The position numbers and the translations under genes are program-made. The notes beneath the pieces were generated by a model. The model saw nothing but the letters and a program-made list of their open reading frames with translations, was not told where the DNA came from and searched no databases. From an uncultured archaeon (GTDB taxonomy: Archaea > Thermoplasmatota > Penumbrarchaeia > JASLWR01): 10,284 bases of DNA. Below are positions 1 to 9,932 of the stretch, piece by piece. The stretch is taken from contig CAYSHM010000011.1 of assembly GCA_964430885.1 (NCBI GenBank), forward strand, positions 85,384 through 95,667, given 5' to 3'. Numbering within the stretch: the stretch's first letter is position 1; each line of letters opens with the position of its first letter.

Positions 1-1962
1 TTCACTCTGTGGACCATACCTGATTCTGATACTATCAAGAATTATATGGAGGAAAATGAACCAAAATCCGCGGTTGTCATAGGGGGAGGTTTCATAGGTC
101 TTGAAATGGCGGAAAATCTCATTGCCCAAGGATTGAACGTTACCATTGTGGAAATGCTGGATCAGGTATGTCCCCCCTTGGATTCCGAGATGGCATCAAT
201 AATCCATTCTCACATAGCTGCCTCTGGTTGCAGGCTCCATCTTTCAGATGCGGTCCAGTCCTTCCACAAAGAGGATGGTCAAACAGTTGTTACTACAAAG
301 AGCGGTGCTGAATTGAAATGTGATATGGTCATCCTATCCATTGGAGTTAAACCCAATAACGACCTGTCCCAGAAGGCAGGACTGGAAATGGGTGACAGGG
401 GTGGGATCAAGACCGATGAACATATGTGTACCTCAGTGTTAGACATATACTCAGCTGGAGATGTTGTTGAGGTGACCGATTATGTATCCGGTCAACCGGC
501 AATGATTCCTCTAGCAGGTCCGGCCAATAAGCAGGGGCGCATTGTCGCGGATAATATATTCGGAAGGGACTCGGTCTTCAAGGGAACTCAAGCATCCTGC
601 GTGGTCAAGGTCTTTGATATGACGGTGGCATGCACCGGGAACAATGCCAAGATACTTGACCGGTATGGTATCCCGTATATTTATTCATATACTGAATCCG
701 GTTCTCATGCTTCATATTATCCTGGAGCCCAAATGATGAATCTCAAGCTACTGTTCAGTCCGGAGGATGGTAAAATTCTAGGAGCCCAAATTGTCGGTAT
801 GGAGGGTGCAGATAAGCGTATCGATGTACTGGCTACAGCTATAAGGGCAGGTATGACAGTGTACGACCTTGAAGAACTCGAGCTGGCCTATGCTCCACCT
901 TACTCCTCGGCTAAGGACCCTGTGAATATGGCTGGATTTGTTGCAAGCAACATCCTGCGCGGGGATGTTGAGAATATCCACTGGTACGAAATGGATTCTT
1001 TGGATATGGATGCCAATGTGCTGTTGGATGTACGTGACGACGAGGAACTAGAGATGAACCCATCTATCGATGGCTCGATCCAGATTCCCCTGAATCAGTT
1101 GCGGAAACGTCTGATTGAATTGGATAAGACCAAGACCTACATAATCTACTGTGCAATGGGTCAGCGAGGCTATATTGCCTACAGAATGCTAAGACAGAAC
1201 GGTTTCAATTGTAAGAATCTAAGCGGAGGCTATCATATTTATATGGCACCAAGGGCGGAACTGAAGGTGCCGGCCGCCCTTCCATCTATGATGGGTATGG
1301 TTCCCGAATCGGATGATGTTCATTTTGATCATATGGTGAACGCCTGCGGGGTGCCATGCCCAGGTCCCATAATGAAGCTCAGTAAGAAGATGGGCGAGAT
1401 GGAAGATGGAAAAGTACTGAAGATAACTGCTTCAGACAGAGGTTTTGCTTCGGATGTTCCGGGCTGGTGCGAGAAAAGCGGAAACCAGCTTTTATCCCTG
1501 AGTTCCGACAAGGGGATCTATACGGCAATAATCAGCAAGGGGAGGATAAGAGCCCCATGCGAAGGATTGGATACAGTTTATGATGAAGAGGAAGAAGGTG
1601 AATATATGGTGAACAAAACAGCAATAACAATAAACAGTTCGAAGGCGAAGGACCTGTTCCCCGCTTTCATACTGGCATCCAGCGCTGCCGCTTCAGGGGA
1701 AGAAGTTATACTCTATTTCACCCCCAACGCGGCCTCTGCACTGAAGAAGGGCGTGCTGGAGAGCATGGAGATGAAGGGTATGCCCAATATGGAGGATCTG
1801 GTGGAGGGCGTGGTATTCATGGATGGGCGTTTCCTGTTGTGCGAACTGGCTTTGAAGACGGGAGAGCTGACTGCGGAGGAATTGAGAGAAGAGGTGGAAG
1901 TGGTGGGGGTTACCACCTTTGTAATTGCTGCAGCGGGAGCGAAGATGACCTTTTCCTTCTGA
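1..1962 (+). CDS. CoA-disulfide/persulfide reductase (Cdr/Npsr family flavoprotein) fused to rhodanese, TusA and DsrE-like domains; 5'-partial
   Basis: Frame 1 is open from base 1 (FTLWTIPDSDTIK, resembling the FTLRxxxD segment that precedes the NAD(P)H-binding fold), so the ATG at 46 is internal and the N-terminal FAD-binding/catalytic-Cys region lies upstream of the window. Motifs: VVIGGGFIGLEMAE (NAD(P)H binding), TSxxDIYSAGD (FAD), PLAGPANKQG, ELAYAPPYSSAKDPVN (CoADR dimerisation domain). Then rhodanese (~970-1245; LLDVR, IIYCAMGQRG with Cys at 1150, NLSGG), TusA (~1327-1542; CGVPCPGP, DVPGWC) and a DsrE-like domain (1606-1959; LLCELAL with Cys at 1840). Confidence 0.92.
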   Translation, partial: FTLWTIPDSDTIKNYMEENEPKSAVVIGGGFIGLEMAENLIAQGLNVTIVEMLDQVCPPLDSEMASIIHSHIAASGCRLHLSDAVQSFHKEDGQTVVTTKSGAELKCDMVILSIGVKPNNDLSQKAGLEMGDRGGIKTDEHMCTSVLDIYSAGDVVEVTDYVSGQPAMIPLAGPANKQGRIVADNIFGRDSVFKGTQASCVVKVFDMTVACTGNNAKILDRYGIPYIYSYTESGSHASYYPGAQMMNLKLLFSPEDGKILGAQIVGMEGADKRIDVLATAIRAGMTVYDLEELELAYAPPYSSAKDPVNMAGFVASNILRGDVENIHWYEMDSLDMDANVLLDVRDDEELEMNPSIDGSIQIPLNQLRKRLIELDKTKTYIIYCAMGQRGYIAYRMLRQNGFNCKNLSGGYHIYMAPRAELKVPAALPSMMGMVPESDDVHFDHMVNACGVPCPGPIMKLSKKMGEMEDGKVLKITASDRGFASDVPGWCEKSGNQLLSLSSDKGIYTAIISKGRIRAPCEGLDTVYDEEEEGEYMVNKTAITINSSKAKDLFPAFILASSAAASGEEVILYFTPNAASALKKGVLESMEMKGMPNMEDLVEGVVFMDGRFLLCELALKTGELTAEELREEVEVVGVTTFVIAAAGAKMTFSF

Positions 1963-2055: not shown

Positions 2056-2286
2056 ATGACAAAAATAGATAAGAAACTGGACTGTAAGGGGCTGTCATGT
2101 CCCATGCCGATCTTAAAGCTGGCCAAGACCATGAAGGCCATGAATGGCGGAGAAGTGTTGGAAATGCAGGGTACTGATCCCGGTTCAAAATCGGATGTGC
2201 CCGCATGGTGCAAGAAGATGGGCCACAAGTTCCTAGGATTGAAAGAGGAGTCAGGCGTCAATAAATTCTATATTCAGCATAAATGA
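2056..2286 (+). CDS. tusA: TusA/SirA/YedF-family sulfur carrier protein
   Basis: 76 aa with LDCKGLSCPMP (CPxP motif, Cys at 2098), GEVLE, TDPGSKSDVPAWC and a C-terminal FYIQHK strand. GGTGA at 2045-2049 lies upstream of the ATG. Confidence 0.93.
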   Translation: MTKIDKKLDCKGLSCPMPILKLAKTMKAMNGGEVLEMQGTDPGSKSDVPAWCKKMGHKFLGLKEESGVNKFYIQHK

Positions 2287-2399
2287 TATGTATTTATGTA
2301 TGATCCATTGGAAGGCAGTTGTGCCTGGGATATCTGAAGAAATTAAAGGAGATGGAATCCTTTTTCGCAGCAGTATTCCTTTGTTTCAATGTTGATCCA

Positions 2400-2431
2400 G
2401 TTATAAATAATGTGTATAAAAATTTAAAAAT
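2400..2431 (+). promoter_or_regulatory. Possible AT-rich TATA-type promoter region upstream of the transporter and multi-rhodanese genes
   Basis: TTATAAATAA (2401-2410), TATAAAAA and TTTAAAAA in the 158-nt gap after tusA. No start site can be verified. Confidence 0.3.
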
Positions 2432-2433
2432 AG

Positions 2434-2440
2434 CAGGTGA
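2434..2440 (+). promoter_or_regulatory. Ribosome-binding site CAGGTGA for the YeeE/YedE gene
   Basis: Lies 4 nt before ATG 2445. Confidence 0.7.
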
Positions 2441-2444
2441 AAAT

Positions 2445-3794
2445 ATGCCGAATTTAAGTAAAAACAGTTTGGACGAGTCCGATATCGAAGAGGGAGTAGA
2501 TAATCTCGATGATGATGAAGTCCCAGACTTTGATAATGTTGTTCCCGATTTCGGAGATGACGAGGTTCCGGATTTTGGTGAGGTTAAACTGACCGATTCA
2601 GGAACTGATGAAGGAAAAGAGCAGGGTATTCTATCAGAGCTCTACTGCAGGTTATTCGGAAGCTCGTGGGAAATGTGGTTGGGAAGCATTCTTCTGGCCA
2701 CACTGAGCATTTGTCTTTTCGTGATCTCATCTCCATGGGGTTCCAGCGGGGGTCTTGTGAACTGGGGTGACAATCTGTTTGGAGTTTTGGGTGCCTCATT
2801 CGGAAAGGAAGCTGTCGATATAGTTGATAACAAGTATGCAATGCTGTCTCTGTTAATGCTGATAGGGGCTTTTGGAGCCGCTCTTATGAGCAAGGAGTTT
2901 TCGGTTAGGGTTTCCCCTATACCGGAACTTGGAAAAGGTATTTTCGGCGGTCTACTTATGGGTTTGGGCTGCGTTCTGGGAATGGGATGTACTGTTGGAA
3001 ATTTCTTTAGCGGATTTGCGGCCTTGTCAGGCGGTGCAATTGTATTTGTTATCGGCCTCTTGATAGGAGTTTTCCTAGCGGTAAAATATCTACTTTGGGA
3101 AATGGAGAAGCATCCGAACTGGAGTTCCGGCAAGTCCTGGACATTTCTGAAACCTAAAACTGAAGGCAGGTCACTTCAGCCCTTAATAGGAGTTGTGGTC
3201 CTTCTCCTTGGAGGAGCTTTGGCTTTGACCTATGATGCTGCAGCTGAAAAGGTCCTCATTGGTTTTGTCTTGATAGGTCTGCTTATAGGTATAATACTTC
3301 AGCGCTCCCGATGGTGCATAGTAAGAGCTCTCAGGGAGACCTTTATGACTGGTGACGCCACGCCTACCATGGCAATAATAGCTGGAATAGTAGTAGGTAC
3401 AATAGGATTCACTACAATAAAGGCAATGGGTATCAGAAGCGAGATGACAATGGTTGCTGCGAACTTCTGGGTGCCGGCAATAGTAGGTGGAATCATATTC
3501 GGTTTCGGTATGACCATTGCCGGGGGCTGCACAGTAGGTTCTACCTGGAGGGCGGCAGAAGGACATGTTAAGCTCTGGTTCTCCCTTTTGGGAATAGTGA
3601 TAGCAGGCCCGCTTACAGCGGAATACATCAAACCCGAATTCCTGGATATGCTGCCTGCTTCAATGAACAAACAGGTGTTCCTTCCGGAACACTTCACTTA
3701 CACAGGTTCGTTCATCATTATGATGCTGATACTTCTGTTATGGTACATATTTGTGAACTGGAACGAACGGACGGGGAAATTATCAGCTTTGTAG
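2445..3794 (+). CDS. YeeE/YedE-family sulfur/selenium-compound transporter (YedE/FdhT-type half order) with acidic N-terminal extension
   Basis: Many Gly-rich hydrophobic helices. Family motifs: GGLLMGLGCVLGMGCTVG (Cys 2988), GIILQRSRWC (Cys 3315), GGIIFGFGMTIAGGCTVGSTWRAAEG (Cys 3528). Start moved from the TTG at 2319 to the ATG at 2445 because CAGGTGA (2434-2440) precedes it and the stretch just upstream is AT-rich and intergenic-like. Confidence 0.9.
   Translation: MPNLSKNSLDESDIEEGVDNLDDDEVPDFDNVVPDFGDDEVPDFGEVKLTDSGTDEGKEQGILSELYCRLFGSSWEMWLGSILLATLSICLFVISSPWGSSGGLVNWGDNLFGVLGASFGKEAVDIVDNKYAMLSLLMLIGAFGAALMSKEFSVRVSPIPELGKGIFGGLLMGLGCVLGMGCTVGNFFSGFAALSGGAIVFVIGLLIGVFLAVKYLLWEMEKHPNWSSGKSWTFLKPKTEGRSLQPLIGVVVLLLGGALALTYDAAAEKVLIGFVLIGLLIGIILQRSRWCIVRALRETFMTGDATPTMAIIAGIVVGTIGFTTIKAMGIRSEMTMVAANFWVPAIVGGIIFGFGMTIAGGCTVGSTWRAAEGHVKLWFSLLGIVIAGPLTAEYIKPEFLDMLPASMNKQVFLPEHFTYTGSFIIMMLILLLWYIFVNWNERTGKLSAL
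2508..2585 (+). repeat. Three in-frame acidic VPDF peptide repeats (DDDEVPDF-DNVVPDFG-DDEVPDFG)
   Basis: VPDF is encoded at 2520-2531 (GTCCCAGACTTT), 2541-2552 (GTTCCCGATTTC) and 2565-2576 (GTTCCGGATTTT). Confidence 0.85.
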
Positions 3795-3802
3795 AGGGGT
3801 GA
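3795..3802 (+). promoter_or_regulatory. Ribosome-binding site AGGGGTGA for the multi-rhodanese gene
   Basis: Directly follows the transporter's TAG (3792-3794) and lies 6 nt before ATG 3809. The 14-nt gap between genes suggests co-transcription. Confidence 0.7.
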
Positions 3803-3808
3803 AATGAT

Positions 3809-6800
3809 ATGACAAAAGAAGATAAGATAATCACAGTTGTTTGTGTAATAGCTTTGATCGCATCCGTAATTCTTTTCTCCTTCATAGATACAGAAGGGGA
3901 CGGGAACAAGAAGGCGGATATCACAGAAGCCGAGGGAATGCTAGGTGCAACACGTTCATTCCTTTCATCAGGAAAAAATACCATGGTAACTGCAGAGGCT
4001 CTATATGCCAATCTCAACGACGGTTATTCCGGAAACGATCCCTTTATACTCAGCGTTAGAGGTGAAGAAGAATATGCAAAGGGTCATATTCCGGGCGCAG
4101 TGAACATACCTTGGAGAAGTGTTTTTACCGAGGACAACATCAGTAAATTACCCAAGAACAAGGAGATAGTTGTCTACTGCTACACAGGTCATACGGCCAG
4201 CCAGATCACTGCACTATTGAATATGGATGGATATGATGCGGTCTGTTTGAAATGGGGAATGTGCTCATGGACCACAAATGCCTCAGTTACAAAGGATATG
4301 TACTATACGCCGCCTTCTGTAGGCTACAAGACCATCTCCGGCAGTCAGCCGGGAGTTTGGTCTGGAACTAGATGCGGCGGTGATGAACCTGCTCCTGCAG
4401 CGGTTGGTGAAGATATTTCGGGGACGGAAGATGTTGACCTTAGAGGTGACATACATAATTATCTTGCATCCGGCAAATCACCAGCAATATCTGCTGGTGT
4501 CCTATACGATAATCTGAACGACGGTGACAGTTCCAATGATCCCTTTATTCTAAGTATTCGTTCCGCTGCTCAATATGAAATAGGTCATATACCTGGAGCA
4601 GTGAATATTGGATTCAAATCCCTTTTCACCGATGATAATATCTCAAAGCTTCCTGAGGATAAACAGATAGTCGTAGTATGCTACACTGGCCACACAGCCA
4701 GCCAGGCCACGGCACTTCTGAATGTGAATGGATATGATGCCATAGCCCTTAAGTTTGGAATGACGGGCTGGTCCTCAAATTCCACAGTAGCGCCTTCGGC
4801 TTTTGTGAAGGCTACGGCAGCTCACAACTATGAGATATCCCTTGGAAATGAAACTGGAGATATGGAAACAGCGGTTATAGCAGATACATCTGAGGTCATA
4901 CTAACAGCCACCCAGGATTTCCTGAAAGCGGGGAAATCCACGATGATAACCGCGGAAGCGCTCTACAACAACCTGAACGATAACTACGCTGGAAACGATC
5001 CCTTTGTCCTCAGCATCAGGAGTCCCGAGCAGTACGCAATCGGGCACATCCCTGGGGCAGTGAACATACCTTACAGGAGTGTTTTCACTGATGAGAACAT
5101 ATCCATGCTTTCAGAACAAACTGGGAACAAGGATGTTGTTGTGGTATGCTACACAGGTCACACGGCCAGCCAGGTTACAGCAATGCTGAATGTGCTGGGA
5201 TTCAACGCACAATGCCTCAAGTGGGGAATGTGTTCTTGGACAACCAACACCACAGTAGCTCCTAGCCATTATACCGCACCTACTAACGATTATCCTGTTG
5301 CAGCTGGCCCCTCACCGGGCTCCTGGCCGGCTTCAGGGACTAGACAGTGCGGCGGGGACGATACGGAGGGCGGAGGAGTTGAGGAAGATGCGCTGGCAGG
5401 TTCTGTATTCGATATAGTCAGGCCAGCCTGTAATAACTATCTTGCAGAAGGTAAAGCGCCTGCTACTTCCGCATCATCACTCAATGAGGTCCTGAATGAC
5501 GGTAATGACACCAACGATCCATATCTCTTGAGCATTCGTTCCTCATCTCAGTATGATATAGGACATATTCCAGGCGCAGTGAACATAGGTTTTACCTCAC
5601 TTTTCGATGAGGACAAACTTTCCATGCTGCCTACAGACAGGCAGATAATTGTGATCTGTTATACAGGACATACAGCCAGTCAAGCTACGGCTCTCCTAAA
5701 CATAAATGGGTATGATGCCATCGCCCTGAAATGGGGTATGACTGGCTGGACGTCTGATGCAGTTGTAGCTCCATCTGCATATAATAGGGATACTGCGGCA
5801 ATGAACTATCCGGTGGTCATGGGTGATCTGCCTGGGGGGATGGACGAGGGAATTATAGCTGACCCAGATGCCCAGGTAATCGATGCTACCAATGCATTTC
5901 TTTCCGCCGGCAAAGGGACCATGATAACTGCTGAAGCCCTATATTCGAACTTGAATGACGGATATTCTGGCAACGATCCATTTATCCTTTCAGTGAGAAG
6001 TGAAGAGCAGTATGCCAAGGGGCACATTCCCGGAGCAGCCAATATACCCTGGACGAAGGTATTTACCGAGGAAAACATTTCCAAACTACCCATGAACAAG
6101 GATATTATAGTATATTGTTATACTGGCCACACTGCCAGCCAGGTTACAGCCATGCTTAATGTGATGGGATATGATGCATTATGCCTGAAATGGGGTATGT
6201 GCTCATGGACATCGGACACCGCTATAGCACCTTCATGCTACCAGCCGCCTGCAATGGACTATCCAGTTGCTTCGGGTGATGATCCGGGAGCTTGGACCCG
6301 TACCCGGCAGTGCGGAGGAGAAACCGGAGATGGTAGCGGCGGAACCGAAATGGTTGGCGGAACCTCTACTGAAGTCATTAGGAAAACATGCAATAATTAT
6401 CTCATGGAAGGTAAACCCCCTGCAGTATCAGCTTCATCCCTCTATGAAAGATTGGAGGATAACGACACTGGAAATGATCCTTTTGTACTCAGTATCAGAA
6501 GCTCCGCTCAGTATTCATTAGGACACATTCCCGGAGCAGTTAATATTGGCATGAGCGGTTTGTTCGAGAAGGAGAACCTTTCAAAATTGCCCGCTGATGA
6601 TCAGCAGATAGTTGTGGTATGCTACACAGGCCACACTGCCAGCCAGGCTACGGCACTACTCAACATCAATGGTTACAACGCTACCGCTCTGAAATGGGGT
6701 ATGACTGGCTGGACCTCCAATGCTACTGTGGCCCCCTCAGCTTATGACCGTGCATCAGCCTGCTTTAATTATCCGGTCGTGATAGGTGAAAATGCCGGGA

Positions 6801-8743
6801 CCATGGAAGAAGGCATTATCGCTGACACAGCAGATGTGATACTTGAAGCTACCAATGGATTTTTATCTTCTGGGGGCAACGCCATGATAACCGCCGAAGC
6901 TCTATATGCTAACTTGAATGACGGGTATTCCGGCAACGATCCTTTTATCCTGAGCATACGAAGTCAAAGCGCTTATGAGGGCGGGCATATTCCTGGAGCG
7001 GTCAATATTCCGTATTCCAGTGTTTTCACTGAGGAGAACATTTCCGCCCTGCCGACAGATAAACCGATCGTGGTCTACTGCTTCACTGGCCATACTGCAA
7101 GTCAGGCCACAGCTATGCTCAACGTTCTTGGTTTCGATGCAGTATGCCTGAAGTGGGGAATGTGCTCCTGGACGACTAACACCACAGTTGCTCCTTCCTG
7201 CTATGATCCAAATACAGTAGAGGATAGGCAGGTTATTTCAGGCTCCGAACCGGGTACATGGACACGCACTAGACAATGCGGGGGCGAGATTGGAGAGGGT
7301 GGGACAGTAGAAGCAGTTTCAGGATCTGTTTTCGACATAACAAGGGCTGCATGTAATAACTATATGGCGGAGGGCAAACCTCCTGCCAAATCCGCAGCGG
7401 ACATCGAGTCTCTTCTGGATGACGGAGATCCCGGAAACGATCCCTTTGTGCTCAGTATTCGTTCCTCTGCCCAGTATGCTATTGGACATATTCCTGGAGC
7501 AATAAATATTGGCATGTCCGATCTATTTACTGAGGAAAATATGGCCTTGCTGCCGGACGATGATACATTGATAGTAGTGGTGTGTTATACTGGACATACA
7601 GCCAGCCAGGCCACGGCGCTTCTCAACATCAACGGATATAATGCCACTGCACTGAAATGGGGAATGACGGGCTGGACCACGAATTCAACAGTGGCTCCTT
7701 CCGCTTACCAGAGAGGCAGCGCATGCCATAATTATCCTGTTATGGTCGGTTCCGAAGCTGGATATCTGGATGGAGCCGAACTCGTGGCTCCGACAGATGA
7801 GGAGATAATCCTTGAGGCGTCAAGCACGTATCTGGAGGGCGGTGCCAAGTTCATCACGGCTGATAGTCTTTATTCCAACCTAGATGACGGCAATAGCTCC
7901 AACGATCCCTTTATCCTAAGCATTAGGAATTCTGCTGATTATGTATTGGGCCATATACCCGGAGCGGTCAACATACCCTGGAAAAGCTTATTCTCAGTGG
8001 GGAATCTCTCACTTCTGCCCCAGAACGACACACAGGTGGTTGTAGTTTGCTATACTGGTCAGACTGCAAGCCAGATCACCGCACTTCTTAATGTGCTGGG
8101 ATTCAATGCATCCGCCCTTAAACACGGTATGTGTTCCTGGACCACCAATACTACTGTGGCACCCAGTTGCTTCAATAACACAACTCACCAGAACTCCTAT
8201 CCCACAGTAGAGGGGAATACTAGGGACGGCTGTGGAGGCGAAGGAGGTTCCGGCGGAACCTATGAGGGCAGTGCAGATGAATGGGAGATGCTGAGGCAGA
8301 GCTGCGAGCGGTATGTGAACGAAGTGGATACGATGTATATTACTGCCGAGGCTTTGTATGCCAACCTCAACGACGGTTACGGCAATAATGACCCATATAT
8401 CATCAGTATTCGAGGTTCAGCAGATTATCAGGTTGGGCATATAGAGGGCGCTGTCAACATACCGGCTGGAAGCATATTTTCGGAAGAGTTTCTATCGGAT
8501 CTCCCCATGGATAGGCCGATAGTTGTCTACTGCTATACTGGTCAGGGGGCGTGTCACGTTGCGGCTCTCCTGAACCTCAACGGCTACGACGCCCTGTCCC
8601 TGAAATGGGGAATGTGTTCTTGGACCGACAACTCCACAGTGAACATGAACAAGTGCTATGACTCAGCTACCTCTGGACATAATTACCCCGTTTACGTTGG
8701 CGGGGAGGTTGGAACTTGGGAAGAAGGTGTTGAGGTAGCCTGA
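3809..8743 (+). CDS. Large membrane-anchored or secreted multi-rhodanese (sulfurtransferase) protein with 10 tandem domains
   Basis: N-terminal charged residues plus a hydrophobic helix (IITVVCVIALIASVILFSF). Then ten copies of NDP-F/Y-x-LS/IS-I/V-R ... GHI(P/E)GAxNI ... C(Y/F)TG(H/Q)xA ... LKxGMxxW, which correspond to the rhodanese GHIPGA, active-site-loop and LxGGxxxW motifs. Catalytic Cys codons are at 4178, 4679, 5147, 5657, 6116, 6620, 7079, 7583, 8048 and 8531. GGGGTGA at 3796-3802 precedes the ATG. Confidence 0.93.
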   Translation: MTKEDKIITVVCVIALIASVILFSFIDTEGDGNKKADITEAEGMLGATRSFLSSGKNTMVTAEALYANLNDGYSGNDPFILSVRGEEEYAKGHIPGAVNIPWRSVFTEDNISKLPKNKEIVVYCYTGHTASQITALLNMDGYDAVCLKWGMCSWTTNASVTKDMYYTPPSVGYKTISGSQPGVWSGTRCGGDEPAPAAVGEDISGTEDVDLRGDIHNYLASGKSPAISAGVLYDNLNDGDSSNDPFILSIRSAAQYEIGHIPGAVNIGFKSLFTDDNISKLPEDKQIVVVCYTGHTASQATALLNVNGYDAIALKFGMTGWSSNSTVAPSAFVKATAAHNYEISLGNETGDMETAVIADTSEVILTATQDFLKAGKSTMITAEALYNNLNDNYAGNDPFVLSIRSPEQYAIGHIPGAVNIPYRSVFTDENISMLSEQTGNKDVVVVCYTGHTASQVTAMLNVLGFNAQCLKWGMCSWTTNTTVAPSHYTAPTNDYPVAAGPSPGSWPASGTRQCGGDDTEGGGVEEDALAGSVFDIVRPACNNYLAEGKAPATSASSLNEVLNDGNDTNDPYLLSIRSSSQYDIGHIPGAVNIGFTSLFDEDKLSMLPTDRQIIVICYTGHTASQATALLNINGYDAIALKWGMTGWTSDAVVAPSAYNRDTAAMNYPVVMGDLPGGMDEGIIADPDAQVIDATNAFLSAGKGTMITAEALYSNLNDGYSGNDPFILSVRSEEQYAKGHIPGAANIPWTKVFTEENISKLPMNKDIIVYCYTGHTASQVTAMLNVMGYDALCLKWGMCSWTSDTAIAPSCYQPPAMDYPVASGDDPGAWTRTRQCGGETGDGSGGTEMVGGTSTEVIRKTCNNYLMEGKPPAVSASSLYERLEDNDTGNDPFVLSIRSSAQYSLGHIPGAVNIGMSGLFEKENLSKLPADDQQIVVVCYTGHTASQATALLNINGYNATALKWGMTGWTSNATVAPSAYDRASACFNYPVVIGENAGTMEEGIIADTADVILEATNGFLSSGGNAMITAEALYANLNDGYSGNDPFILSIRSQSAYEGGHIPGAVNIPYSSVFTEENISALPTDKPIVVYCFTGHTASQATAMLNVLGFDAVCLKWGMCSWTTNTTVAPSCYDPNTVEDRQVISGSEPGTWTRTRQCGGEIGEGGTVEAVSGSVFDITRAACNNYMAEGKPPAKSAADIESLLDDGDPGNDPFVLSIRSSAQYAIGHIPGAINIGMSDLFTEENMALLPDDDTLIVVVCYTGHTASQATALLNINGYNATALKWGMTGWTTNSTVAPSAYQRGSACHNYPVMVGSEAGYLDGAELVAPTDEEIILEASSTYLEGGAKFITADSLYSNLDDGNSSNDPFILSIRNSADYVLGHIPGAVNIPWKSLFSVGNLSLLPQNDTQVVVVCYTGQTASQITALLNVLGFNASALKHGMCSWTTNTTVAPSCFNNTTHQNSYPTVEGNTRDGCGGEGGSGGTYEGSADEWEMLRQSCERYVNEVDTMYITAEALYANLNDGYGNNDPYIISIRGSADYQVGHIEGAVNIPAGSIFSEEFLSDLPMDRPIVVYCYTGQGACHVAALLNLNGYDALSLKWGMCSWTDNSTVNMNKCYDSATSGHNYPVYVGGEVGTWEEGVEVA
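3938..8740 (+). repeat. Intragenic tandem repeat: five two-domain units with a period of about 950-980 nt
   Basis: Spacings between successive catalytic Cys codons alternate: 501, 468, 510, 459, 504, 459, 504, 465, 483 nt. One exact DNA match is CTGAAATGGGGTATGACTGGCTGGAC at 5726-5751 and 6689-6714, 963 nt apart. Boundaries are approximate. Confidence 0.9.
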
Positions 8744-8757
8744 ACCAAACCAAATAT

Positions 8758-8783
8758 GGGGGTTTAAACCGCCCCCTTTTTTT
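8758..8783 (+). terminator. Probable transcription terminator (GC stem-loop followed by T7)
   Basis: GGGGG(8758-62)-TTTAAACCG-CCCCC(8772-76)-TTTTTTT(8777-83), starting 15 nt after the stop codon of the multi-rhodanese gene. Confidence 0.7.
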
Positions 8784-8939
8784 ATATTATTATTAAATAT
8801 CCATACCTTGCCTGCTCATATCTCTTCTTTTAACCTATTTATTAATGTGGTTTAGATAAATAGGGAAGAAGAAATATCATCAAATCCACAATTATCATTG
8901 TTTCTAATATCCACCCTAAATTGCGGTTCGGTAATAAAA

Positions 8940-9932
8940 ATGGGACGGAATCGGAGTATTGATCAGTTCAGAGGCGTCGCCATTGTTTCAATGGTATTCT
9001 TCACAATGACCCTTAAGCTCAGTTCAGATCTGCCCGAACTACTTAAGCACAATGTCCCTGGCTCAGTCCATGTAGGGGATTTTGTCCTACCTATGTTTTT
9101 GTTTGCCAGTGGATTATCATTGGCGTACTACTTTGAGAATAATTTATCGAGAGGATCTCTTTGCAGCAGCAGTGCTCTTAAGGATATTATTGGACGTTTT
9201 ATCAAATTGGCATTTATTGGACTATCACTATCTTATTTCTCTGCATACCGACTCCTTGAAATGGACGAGGTCATGTTAAGCGCCATTTGTTTCTTGGCAT
9301 GTATATTCCTGTCTAGATTTAAATGGAAATTTGGTTTATTAATTATAATTCTTATCAACCTTTCTTATCTATTGCTCATCAAATTTGATCACACCTATAT
9401 TTTTTCACAACACTATCTTGGAGGATATCTATCAGTCCCCTATTATCTGCCGATTATGTTAAGCGGTTTTTTTGTAGGTCAGGATATGATCCTCAGAAGT
9501 GAAATGAATCATCTGACAGCTTCAACGAATAATGCCTCTGAAAACCCCATATCTGCAAATAATCTTTTATTAATGGTAGGAGTTATGGTTCTTTTTCTTC
9601 TATCCATGCTATTTGCCCAATTGGACAAGTTAACGGCTTCACCTTCATTTATGATGCTATCGATTTTGGTTTCTTTCTTTCTGTATATCGCATTTATTAA
9701 ATTCAAACTAAGTAATCCCATCGCTGCGCAGATAGAGTATATTGGTAAAAATCCCCTCCGTTTTTGGGTAATGATGTACGTGCTGCTGATCATCCCTGGA
9801 ATTATATATGTCAAAACTAAAGATGGCTCTTTCCCTCTTGAAATACCGTGGCTTGCAGGAATTACTATCAGCTCGGCAGCTATTTTTTTATTATGGAGTA
9901 TGTCAAAATTGGTCGATAGACTGAAGGATTAA
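8940..9932 (+). CDS. HGSNAT-like (heparan-alpha-glucosaminide N-acetyltransferase / DUF1624-type) multi-pass membrane acyltransferase
   Basis: N-terminal RNRSIDQFRG (RxxSxDxxRG motif), then LKHNVPGSVHVGDFVLPMFLFASGLS, which matches the H..G...D.V.P.FLF..G.S motif, followed by many hydrophobic segments. The ATG at 8940 is preferred over the TTG at 8898 because the family motif begins right after it. Confidence 0.75.
   Translation: MGRNRSIDQFRGVAIVSMVFFTMTLKLSSDLPELLKHNVPGSVHVGDFVLPMFLFASGLSLAYYFENNLSRGSLCSSSALKDIIGRFIKLAFIGLSLSYFSAYRLLEMDEVMLSAICFLACIFLSRFKWKFGLLIIILINLSYLLLIKFDHTYIFSQHYLGGYLSVPYYLPIMLSGFFVGQDMILRSEMNHLTASTNNASENPISANNLLLMVGVMVLFLLSMLFAQLDKLTASPSFMMLSILVSFFLYIAFIKFKLSNPIAAQIEYIGKNPLRFWVMMYVLLIIPGIIYVKTKDGSFPLEIPWLAGITISSAAIFLLWSMSKLVDRLKD

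Follow-up and report, generated by a model that had tools for sequence, protein, structure and literature searches.

A ten-domain rhodanese array with every catalytic cysteine retained, encoded beside a YeeE/YedE-family channel in an uncultured archaeon, as a candidate antenna for external sulfane sulfur

Described systems and the ten-rhodanese locus

Tandem rhodanese folds within one chain are known from the classical multi-domain sulfurtransferases, of which bovine TST (thiosulfate sulfurtransferase), RhdA and SseA have two domains, YnjE three and Pseudomonas aeruginosa 1yt8 four; in bovine TST, RhdA, SseA and YnjE only some of the domains carry the catalytic cysteine, and the domains pack tightly. 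Sud of Wolinella succinogenes, an exported rhodanese-type protein, is a small single-domain homodimer that carries sulfur to polysulfide reductase (PsrABC), a sulfur-metabolising partner in the membrane of this bacterium, and the single cysteine of this periplasmic protein is reportedly needed for polysulfide-sulfur transfer. Rhodaneses have been ascribed an unresolved but prominent role in sulfur respiration (PMC6378623), and sulfur import has been called 'poorly understood' (PMC11582611). Here we describe a gene of an uncultured marine archaeon (Thermoplasmatota; Penumbrarchaeia; JASLWR01) which encodes ten tandem rhodanese domains, each with its catalytic cysteine, downstream of genes for a TusA-like sulfur carrier and a YeeE/YedE-family channel. 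The gene lies at positions 3809 to 8743 of the window, by which we mean the whole analysed stretch of 10,284 nucleotides (assembly GCA_964430885.1, contig CAYSHM010000011.1, positions 85,384 to 95,667, forward strand).

The array resembles Sud in its probable export, but has ten domains on one anchored chain, a YeeE channel as partner and an archaeal host. Sud was absent from the 17 sequence matches and from the listed structural matches, which does not exclude relatedness, and the locus holds no molybdopterin gene (cf. PsrABC), the one molybdopterin oxidoreductase open reading frame (ORF; PF00384) of the genome being on contig C35, away from the locus. Each array domain is of the ordinary type of Escherichia coli GlpE and PspE, 3foj, 3iwh, 3gk5 and TSTD1, with matches to NCBIfam PspE and GlpE, but unlike the stand-alone GlpE and PspE of ~100 aa the array domains have an extra N-terminal helix and stand ten in tandem. 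The best PDB sequence match was to 1yt8 (E 2e-10), with cysteine in two of the four aligned loops. The pairing of an inactive N-terminal with an active C-terminal domain, typical of TST and MST (mercaptopyruvate sulfurtransferase), is not seen in the array, in which both alternating domain types (A and B, below) carry the cysteine loop, and the array loops (CYTGH or CYTGQ) match neither the reference motif of TST (CRKGVT) nor that of MST (CG[ST]GVT).

The adjacent channel belongs to the same superfamily as YeeE/YeeD (TsuA/TsuB), which import thiosulfate (PMC11073785), and YedE1E2, which imports zero-valent sulfur (PMC10812762), and has, as they do, a TusA-like neighbour and a conserved set of relay cysteines; the available parts of these two sources describe no rhodanese partner outside the cell. 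A neighbouring flavoenzyme shares with Npsr, CoADR-RHD and CoA-persulfide reductase the active-site cysteine and a cysteine-bearing C-terminal rhodanese domain, and goes beyond Npsr and CoADR-RHD in its added TusA and DsrE domains. The YTD cluster of sulfur disproportionators comprises yedE, tusA, dsrE and two to three conserved hypothetical genes (PMC12998232, PMC13047784); of these, the locus has yedE, tusA and, as part of the flavoenzyme fusion, a DsrE domain, and no counterpart of chp1 or chp2 was identified, no profile search having been aimed at them. In fermenting anaerobes (RdlA; Halanaerobium), rhodanese-like proteins are implicated in sulfidogenesis and are more abundant with thiosulfate (PMC5497025), but they are paired with the sulfite reductase Asr, no multi-domain array being described in the available part of that source, whereas no sulfite reductase domain (NIR_SIR) was found in our genome, which is 91.6% complete, a scope that applies to all genome searches reported here.

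Architecture, fold and family of the array

A single ORF of 1644 codons with an ATG start (3809..8743, + strand) encodes the protein. The initial annotation had described it as ten tandem rhodanese domains that each retain the catalytic cysteine, and this stands: Pfam Rhodanese (PF00581) matches ten stretches (E 1.3e-163, 533 bits) and the pattern C[YF]TG[HQ].[AS] occurs exactly ten times, at residues 124, 291, 447, 617, 770, 938, 1091, 1259, 1414 and 1575, the cysteine standing at the loop start in 10/10 domains. Its loop spacing of about 160 aa agrees with measured cysteine-to-cysteine distances of 153-170 aa (167, 156, 170, 153, 168, 153, 168, 155 and 161), and its statement that almost all loops read CYTGHTASQ holds in that eight of the ten are C[YF]TGHTASQ, the final two, in d9 and d10, being CYTGQTASQ and CYTGQGACH with Gln in place of His. 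The active-site loops (C-Y/F-T-G-H/Q-T/G-A) have six residues and lack an Arg at +6, so that no CX5R motif is present; a six-residue loop is that of sulfurtransferases and a seven-residue CX5R loop that of the Cdc25/Acr2 phosphatases. The domains fall into two alternating types, an alternation not remarked in the initial annotation: type A (d1, d3, d5 and d7) with 64-71% mutual identity and type B (d2, d4, d6 and d8) with 63-73%, the identity of A to B being 46-57%. The architecture is four A-B units followed by a divergent terminal pair, d9-d10. The protein has a mass of ~171 kDa and is acidic outside its hydrophobic segment (isoelectric point 4.35). It holds 25 N-x-S/T sequons against 17.4 +/- 3.6 expected, an enrichment of ~2 standard deviations that was judged too weak as evidence of N-glycosylation. 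Its features are given below; every domain is placed by its loop, by domain comparison and by our own hidden Markov model (HMM), with additional evidence in brackets.

3827..3886, + strand: N-terminal hydrophobic segment, residues 7-26, predicted signal anchor (Kyte-Doolittle scan)
3914..4321, + strand: d1, type A, Cys124 (AlphaFold2 model)
4415..4822, + strand: d2, type B, Cys291 (AlphaFold2 model)
4883..5290, + strand: d3, type A, Cys447 (AlphaFold2 model)
5393..5800, + strand: d4, type B, Cys617 (AlphaFold2 model)
5852..6259, + strand: d5, type A, Cys770 (AlphaFold2 model)
6302..6349, + strand: example of an A-to-B linker, residues 832-847, around TRQCGGETGDGSGG (predicted local distance difference test score, pLDDT, < 50 in both models)
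6356..6763, + strand: d6, type B, Cys938 (AlphaFold2 model)
6815..7222, + strand: d7, type A, Cys1091 (AlphaFold2 model, superposition)
7319..7726, + strand: d8, type B, Cys1259
7784..8191, + strand: d9, terminal pair, CYTGQ loop, Cys1414 (tree)
8267..8674, + strand: d10, terminal pair, most divergent, Cys1575 (tree)

Chance and artefact are ruled out for the ten-domain array because synonymous sites between the repeats are saturated and the locus is identical in two further assemblies. Over all 45 domain pairs the proportion of synonymous differences (pS) is 0.68-0.90 and that of nonsynonymous differences (pN) 0.20-0.41, the DNA repeats within the gene being merely 60-84% identical. Logan contigs of two runs cover 2056-8743 unbroken with 0 differences from the window, although these runs may be the source samples, so that what is independent is the assembly and not the DNA; runs X3 and X4 contain this interval in pieces only. 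Twelve proteins, that of the window included, have ten catalytic loops, with 57-72% identity to the window protein, and one of them (P0014) has an additional eleventh, fragmentary HMM match. In the alignment of these 12 orthologues the catalytic cysteine is present at 120/120 positions and the whole CxTG[HQ] loop is invariant, conservation which indicates that all ten sites are maintained by purifying selection. In a tree of 179 domains from 21 proteins, d1, d2, d3, d7, d8, d9 and d10 of the window protein pair with the same-numbered domains of other ten-domain proteins, and its d9-d10 adjoin d5-d6 of six-domain and d7-d8 of eight-domain proteins. These positions indicate that the array grew through internal units inserted ahead of a conserved terminal pair, and that it did so before the ten-domain orthologues diverged.

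Residues 7-26 hold the only 19-residue windows with a Kyte-Doolittle mean > 2.5, the five highest starting at residues 6-10, and the same N-terminal anchor was found in the orthologues. Among 185 multi-domain relatives, 153 have an N-terminal hydrophobic segment (67 of those resembling lipoboxes), and most of the other 32 are 5'-truncated fragments or YeeE fusions. The natural YeeE-rhodanese fusions P0044, P0047, P0048 and P0050 have four rhodanese domains, separated from the final helix of YeeE by one additional transmembrane helix. YeeD, which also occurs in nature as a C-terminal fusion to YeeE, binds the channel from the cytoplasmic side (PMC11073785); given the one extra helix, the rhodanese domains of the fusions would therefore lie outside. 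The ten-rhodanese protein, for its part, is very probably located outside the cell on a membrane anchor, in an N-in/C-out orientation.

Pfam, AlphaFold2, VIA-align and Foldseek agree in recognising the domains as rhodanese folds. The AlphaFold2 model of d5-d7 has a pLDDT of 89.1 and a predicted template modelling score (pTM) of 0.76, and that of d1-d6 values of 83.7 and 0.52, respectively. Modelled domains align to single-domain rhodaneses by VIA-align with Z ~14-17 and root-mean-square deviations (rmsd) of 1.4-2.7 Å over 92-103 residues (Z 16-17 to 3foj, 3iwh and 3gk5, 13.7 to GlpE 1gmx and 15.5 to the Npsr rhodanese domain), and by Foldseek with TMt 0.82-0.84. Superposition of the predicted model on two-, three- and four-domain rhodaneses gave rmsd of 10-25 Å, with a two-domain TMt of at most 0.37, and none of the listed two-domain structures superposed on two consecutive domains of the model; the predicted packing thus appears to differ from the arrangement in tandem rhodaneses of the bovine type. 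In the d1-d6 model all A-to-B linkers (residues 186-208, 508-524 and 832-846) have pLDDT < 50, and the short B-to-A linkers are confident. The A-to-B linkers are thus predicted to be disordered, pointing to a flexible tether, and because of these low values and the low six-domain pTM the rigid rod or wire envisaged in the initial annotation is not supported.

Each A-to-B linker, and that of the terminal pair, contains one cysteine (C189, C514, C835, C1157 and C1475) in a TRCGGD, TRQCGGD/E or DGCGGEGGSGG motif within a glycine-rich stretch. These cysteines are retained at 58/60 positions in the 12 orthologues, the linkers being otherwise 51-61% identical. The TR(Q)CGG-type motif is confined to the archaeal clade, and any linker motif of the form CG[GDEN] or GCG occurs in 31 of 138 all-cysteine multi-domain proteins. 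A cysteine in the first helix of the next domain (CNNY) is kept in 9-12 of 12 orthologues, and the linker cysteine could pair with it. Alternatively, it could behave by analogy like the sulfur-carrying arm of SoxY, in which a glycine-flanked cysteine on a flexible peptide (GGCGG) carries sulfur covalently (PMC6067878). The likeness to SoxYZ is at the level of the motif only, with no sequence relation, and whereas the SoxY arm is C-terminal on an Ig-like carrier of an oxidative pathway, the array motif is internal between rhodanese domains.

A single-domain query against 1.84 billion representative proteins returned 8805 matches at E <= 0.001. In the best 150 of these, for which stretches were counted, one protein has 16, one has 10 and two have 8, the others having 6, 4, 3, mostly 2, and 1; arrays of at least eight domains are therefore very rare (4 of the best 150 of 8805 matches). 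A census of domains and catalytic cysteines with our own HMM over 198 proteins gave the following counts.

2 domains, 2 with cysteine: 64 proteins
2 domains, 1 with cysteine: 25 proteins
2 domains, 0 with cysteine: 9 proteins
3 domains, 3 with cysteine: 7 proteins
4 domains, 4 with cysteine: 26 proteins
6 domains, 6 with cysteine: 23 proteins
8 domains, 8 with cysteine: 6 proteins
10 domains, 10 with cysteine: 11 proteins
11 domains, 10 with cysteine: 1 protein
16 domains, 16 with cysteine: 1 protein
Other (single-domain included): 23 proteins

All-active arrays (of 2, 4, 6, 8, 10 or 16 domains) are thus the rule in this family. The possibility that the architecture is already common and characterised, allowed for in the initial annotation, applies in part: all-cysteine arrays of two to six domains are common in the family, but those of at least eight are very rare, and none was found to be characterised in print. 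No paper on multi-rhodanese arrays was found in a literature search whose coverage did not extend to subscription journals. No relatives of 2878-5000 aa were found at E <= 0.001, which is weak evidence, and the longest protein found has 2327 aa. This 16-domain protein (P0016) contains in its linker 435-527 two copies of a Cys-framed CTDP.ANNYNP.AT.DDGS motif that is absent from its other linkers. A full-length ten-domain ORF is present in 4 of 37 species genomes of the window's class, in two families, with fragments in two more genomes. Named relatives are metagenome-assembled genomes (MAGs) labelled Thermoplasmata, Methanomassiliicoccales or Thermoplasmatales archaeon, and two-domain relatives come from MAGs of Clostridia, Dehalococcoidales and Ignavibacterium. 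Some relatives are fused to multihaem cytochrome c domains (PF14537, PF14522; P0045, P0046 and P0053) or adjoin them (L011:5208-6593, where the cytochrome gene stands next door in place of yeeE); this fusion and adjacency suggests that some arrays feed extracytoplasmic reductases instead of a channel.

The sulfur gene cassette and its host

The other features of the window are listed below.

1..1962, + strand: CoADR/Npsr-like flavoprotein fused to rhodanese, TusA and DsrE domains, 3' part, 653 codons (Pfam Pyr_redox_2, Pyr_redox_dim, Rhodanese, TusA, DsrE)
2056..2286, + strand: TusA/YeeD-like sulfur carrier, 76 aa, LSCPMP cysteine motif (Pfam TusA PF01206, E 6.3e-25)
2445..3794, + strand: YeeE/YedE-family sulfur channel, 449 aa from the ATG at 2445, ORF open from 2319 (Pfam Sulf_transp PF04143, E 8.7e-42)
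8758..8783, + strand: terminator-like GC hairpin GGGGGTTTAAACCGCCCCC followed by TTTTTTT, 15 nt past the rhodanese stop (sequence scan)
8898..9932, + strand: HGSNAT/acyltransferase-3-like membrane protein, likely ATG at 8940 (Pfam HGSNAT_cat, E 8e-9)

The rhodanese gene starts 14 nt past the yeeE stop, preceded by GGGGTGA, and the terminator-like hairpin occurs only after the rhodanese gene and not between it and yeeE. A sigma-70 promoter scan was disregarded as not meaningful for an archaeon, and no Rfam family reached its gathering score in the window. The two genes adjoin in 9 of 12 loci, namely the window, L001-L005 and L010 (archaea), L007 (Clostridia) and L008 (Dehalococcoidales), and a small tusA stands beside yeeE in all eight loci in which that DNA is visible. 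The 76-aa carrier scores 61 bits against NCBIfam TusA (cut-off 78) and more weakly, 37.6 bits, against YedF.

The channel, encoded by the only PF04143 gene found in the genome, has three cysteines (C182, C291 and C362) that are invariant in 26 sequences. The halves of Pfam Sulf_transp match it in swapped order, residues 66-211 to profile positions 168-310 and the later part to 1-156, whereas residues 70-443 align collinearly to its best NCBIfam match, the 'selenium metabolism membrane protein YedE/FdhT', which places the archaeal channel in the YedE/FdhT-like arrangement of the family. The bacterial channel neighbours in L007 and L008 match Sulf_transp collinearly. The acidic N-terminal tail of the channel (residues 1-70, window 2445-2660) carries three (D)DEVPDF(G) repeats; its closest orthologues (P0200-P0203) have three to four DDEVPDF-type copies, and most relatives of 400 aa lack the tail.

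The flavoprotein gene starts at L012:14453, upstream of the window. The nearest solved structures to the fusion protein (P0002) are CoADR-RHD 3icr (E 1e-123), Npsr 3nta (1e-115, residues 2-400) and CoA-persulfide reductase 8a56, with E from 1e-109 to 1e-123; its N-terminal 149 aa contain GGVAGG and SYANCGLPYY, the latter with the active-site cysteine, and its rhodanese loop is YCAMGQRG. A run of 100 N lies within the gene just before window base 1 (L012:14901-15000), with the same ~55 bases repeated on either side. Because such duplicated flanks mark a scaffold join of overlapping contig ends, we regard the gene as intact, neither truncated nor frameshifted. A similar CoADR-like enzyme is encoded near the rhodanese locus in L003 and L006.

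An HGSNAT-like gene lies directly downstream of the rhodanese gene in four archaeal loci (the window, where the terminator-like hairpin separates the two, L001:6328-6627, L004:7385-8362 and L010:9519-10475), and the putative product might, speculatively, modify a surface glycan. Just upstream of the sulfur cluster are hypB, hypE, hypD and hypA together with an HTH_10 regulator (L012:9671-13072, - strand; L012:13554-14183), and hypF adjoins the rhodanese gene in L002 (5783-8032). These genes hint at a link between H2 metabolism and the sulfur system, and the genome encodes a NiFe hydrogenase. Genes for DsrE, MvhD and HdrA-like and FrhB-like proteins occur near the L008 and L010 rhodanese loci. 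A second, different small TusA gene with an LKCPxP motif (L004:9183-9407, L010:12898-13122 and L008:6274-6501) sits amid genes for DsrE, MvhD, a FAD-oxidoreductase and HdrA-like proteins, a few kb from the rhodanese gene in two archaeal loci and one bacterial locus, a neighbourhood that may be a conserved module for sulfur reduction or bifurcation in the cytoplasm. Located 5 kb upstream (L012:5831-9529, - strand) is the gene of a typical archaeal surface protein, which has 1232 aa and bears PKD and CARDB domains.

We considered and rejected a methanogenic or sulfite-reducing host, as neither McrA nor NIR_SIR was found in the 91.6% complete genome. With no NIR_SIR domain found, only the sulfane part of thiosulfate would be usable.

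Proposed sulfur capture and its rivals

We propose, at about even chances of being right, that the protein is a cell-surface antenna which collects sulfane sulfur and hands it over to the YeeE channel, reduction following in the cytoplasm. A single N-terminal helix would anchor it in the cytoplasmic membrane of a non-methanogenic Thermoplasmata-type archaeon, with ten catalytically competent rhodanese domains hanging outside on a flexibly jointed chain. Each active-site cysteine would take up zero-valent sulfur as a persulfide, from polysulfide, from colloidal or elemental sulfur or from the outer sulfur of thiosulfate, and the loaded chain would hand it to the presumably co-transcribed YeeE/YedE channel. 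From there the three conserved channel cysteines may relay sulfur to the small TusA on the cytoplasmic side, from which it would reach the Rhd-TusA-DsrE domains of the Npsr/CoADR-type flavoenzyme, where reduction with NAD(P)H to sulfide could serve as an electron sink or respiratory acceptor. Compared with one or two sites, ten would offer a larger capture cross-section and a longer reach, which we estimate at tens of nanometres if the chain is extended. The multivalent store or wire of the initial annotation survives here in part: surface capture and relay fit the ten intact sites, the anchor and the YeeE, TusA and reductase partners, but the rigid wire does not, and sequence cannot tell a store or sponge from an antenna.

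Several observations weigh against this proposal. The CYTGHTA loop has no Arg or Lys, whereas the loops of thiosulfate-specific TST enzymes do carry Arg/Lys. The channel falls below every curated cut-off, its best match, to YedE/FdhT, scoring 155 bits against a cut-off of 350, and the orientation of the array comes from a crude hydropathy scan, with no dedicated topology predictor. No yeeE was present among the scanned ORFs of L009 and L011, L006 is cut inside the rhodanese gene so that its upstream side is unreadable, and no RNA run containing window 2056-8743 was found. In the YeeE fusions with four rhodanese domains (P0044, P0047, P0048, P0049 and P0050) the catalytic cysteine is present in none or one of the four, and in that branch, at least, the domains function without recourse to persulfides. 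Whether sulfur is imported or exported is not fixed by the sequence, and the functions proposed for the family are read from sequence.

A bolder version of the same import route, in which the array is a covalent sulfur conveyor, is in our estimation improbable: the linker cysteines would act as SoxY-like swinging arms in site-to-site transfer over ~15 stations, from a distal d9-d10 capture pair to YeeE, and the number of A-B units (giving 6, 8, 10 or 16 domains) would follow from how far the envelope has to be spanned. If true, it would be a new way of bringing an insoluble substrate to a transporter. Somewhat more credible, though still unlikely, is that the array binds or cleaves thiosulfate outside and feeds a YeeE/YeeD-type importer solely for assimilatory sulfur, as in E. 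coli TsuA/TsuB. YeeE and YeeD are an established uptake pair for assimilation (PMC11073785), the tusA-yeeE pair is conserved here, and the summed whole-protein scores of the array pass the NCBIfam cut-offs for the PspE and GlpE thiosulfate sulfurtransferases. The channel, however, scores far under the TsuA cut-offs, so that the equivalog match fails (NF052577, 89.6 against 400 bits; NF041049, 79 against 645), no sulfite reductase domain was found that could handle the sulfonate half, and a 171-kDa ten-site protein plus a fused NAD(P)H persulfide reductase would seem costly for a trace need where sulfide is usually available.

Ten sites predicted to form persulfides on a flexible tether would equally suit outward flow or retention, with the array as a surface sponge or store for sulfane sulfur or polysulfide or as a redox shield, a reading to which the open flow direction lends itself; rhodaneses are said in one study to limit sulfane-sulfur accumulation in bacteria. 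We think export, buffering or detoxification improbable, as persulfide would be consumed by the reductase-type enzyme on the cytoplasmic side, characterised YeeE-family members are importers and no sulfide-oxidising, sulfane-producing enzyme was seen in the neighbourhood. A mainly structural role, with rhodanese folds as blocks of an envelope fibre or adhesin (which might, for instance, attach the cell to particles of sulfur or mineral) and cysteines as structural disulfides, would accord with a large, acidic, repetitive anchored surface protein with a slight excess of sequons, with the nearby PKD/CARDB surface proteins and with the cysteine-less domains of the YeeE fusions, which show non-catalytic use of the fold. 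It is very improbable, since invariance of the catalytic cysteine and of the whole loop at ten positions in 12 orthologues is unexpected for a scaffold, and the operon link to a sulfur channel is tight. Hardest of all to credit is the acquisition of selenium, captured by the array for a YedE/FdhT-type channel and a YedF-like carrier: the collinear YedE/FdhT match and the weak YedF match favour it, and ExtH, a rhodanese-like lipoprotein, is reportedly linked to selenite uptake, but the YedE/FdhT score is well short of its cut-off, the carrier matches TusA better than YedF, the surrounding genes encode sulfur-relay domains (DsrE, TusA and a CoADR-like enzyme) and selD was not found in the 91.6% complete genome, its sole weak match (70.7 bits, cut-off 125) being ThiL. 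A SelD-like sulfur family (PMC4210487) turned out to be irrelevant. The probability that these named readings leave over belongs to something we have not thought of.

Returning to the proposed antenna, several aspects of the system are new. These are the all-active tandem array itself, which reaches ten domains and in one case 16; its constant pairing with a TusA-YeeE importer across archaea and bacteria, at times as a fusion; the cysteine-bearing flexible linkers; the anchoring by a single N-terminal membrane segment; and the conservation of the tusA-yeeE-rhodanese cassette beside an Npsr/CoADR-like Rhd-TusA-DsrE fusion. How anaerobes gain access to poorly soluble zero-valent sulfur, and by what outside route sulfur reaches YeeE-type channels, are open questions of the sulfur cycle, for which this family provides a concrete candidate outer component: a probably exported, all-active array linked, and sometimes fused, to the channel in archaea and several bacterial phyla. 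Leaving aside the single 16-domain protein, no well-conserved case more extreme than the ten-domain archaeal form was found. The presence of this form suggests that sediment Thermoplasmata-type archaea, which are not methanogens by these searches, use external sulfane sulfur and, if this is true, that they have a role in sedimentary sulfur cycling.

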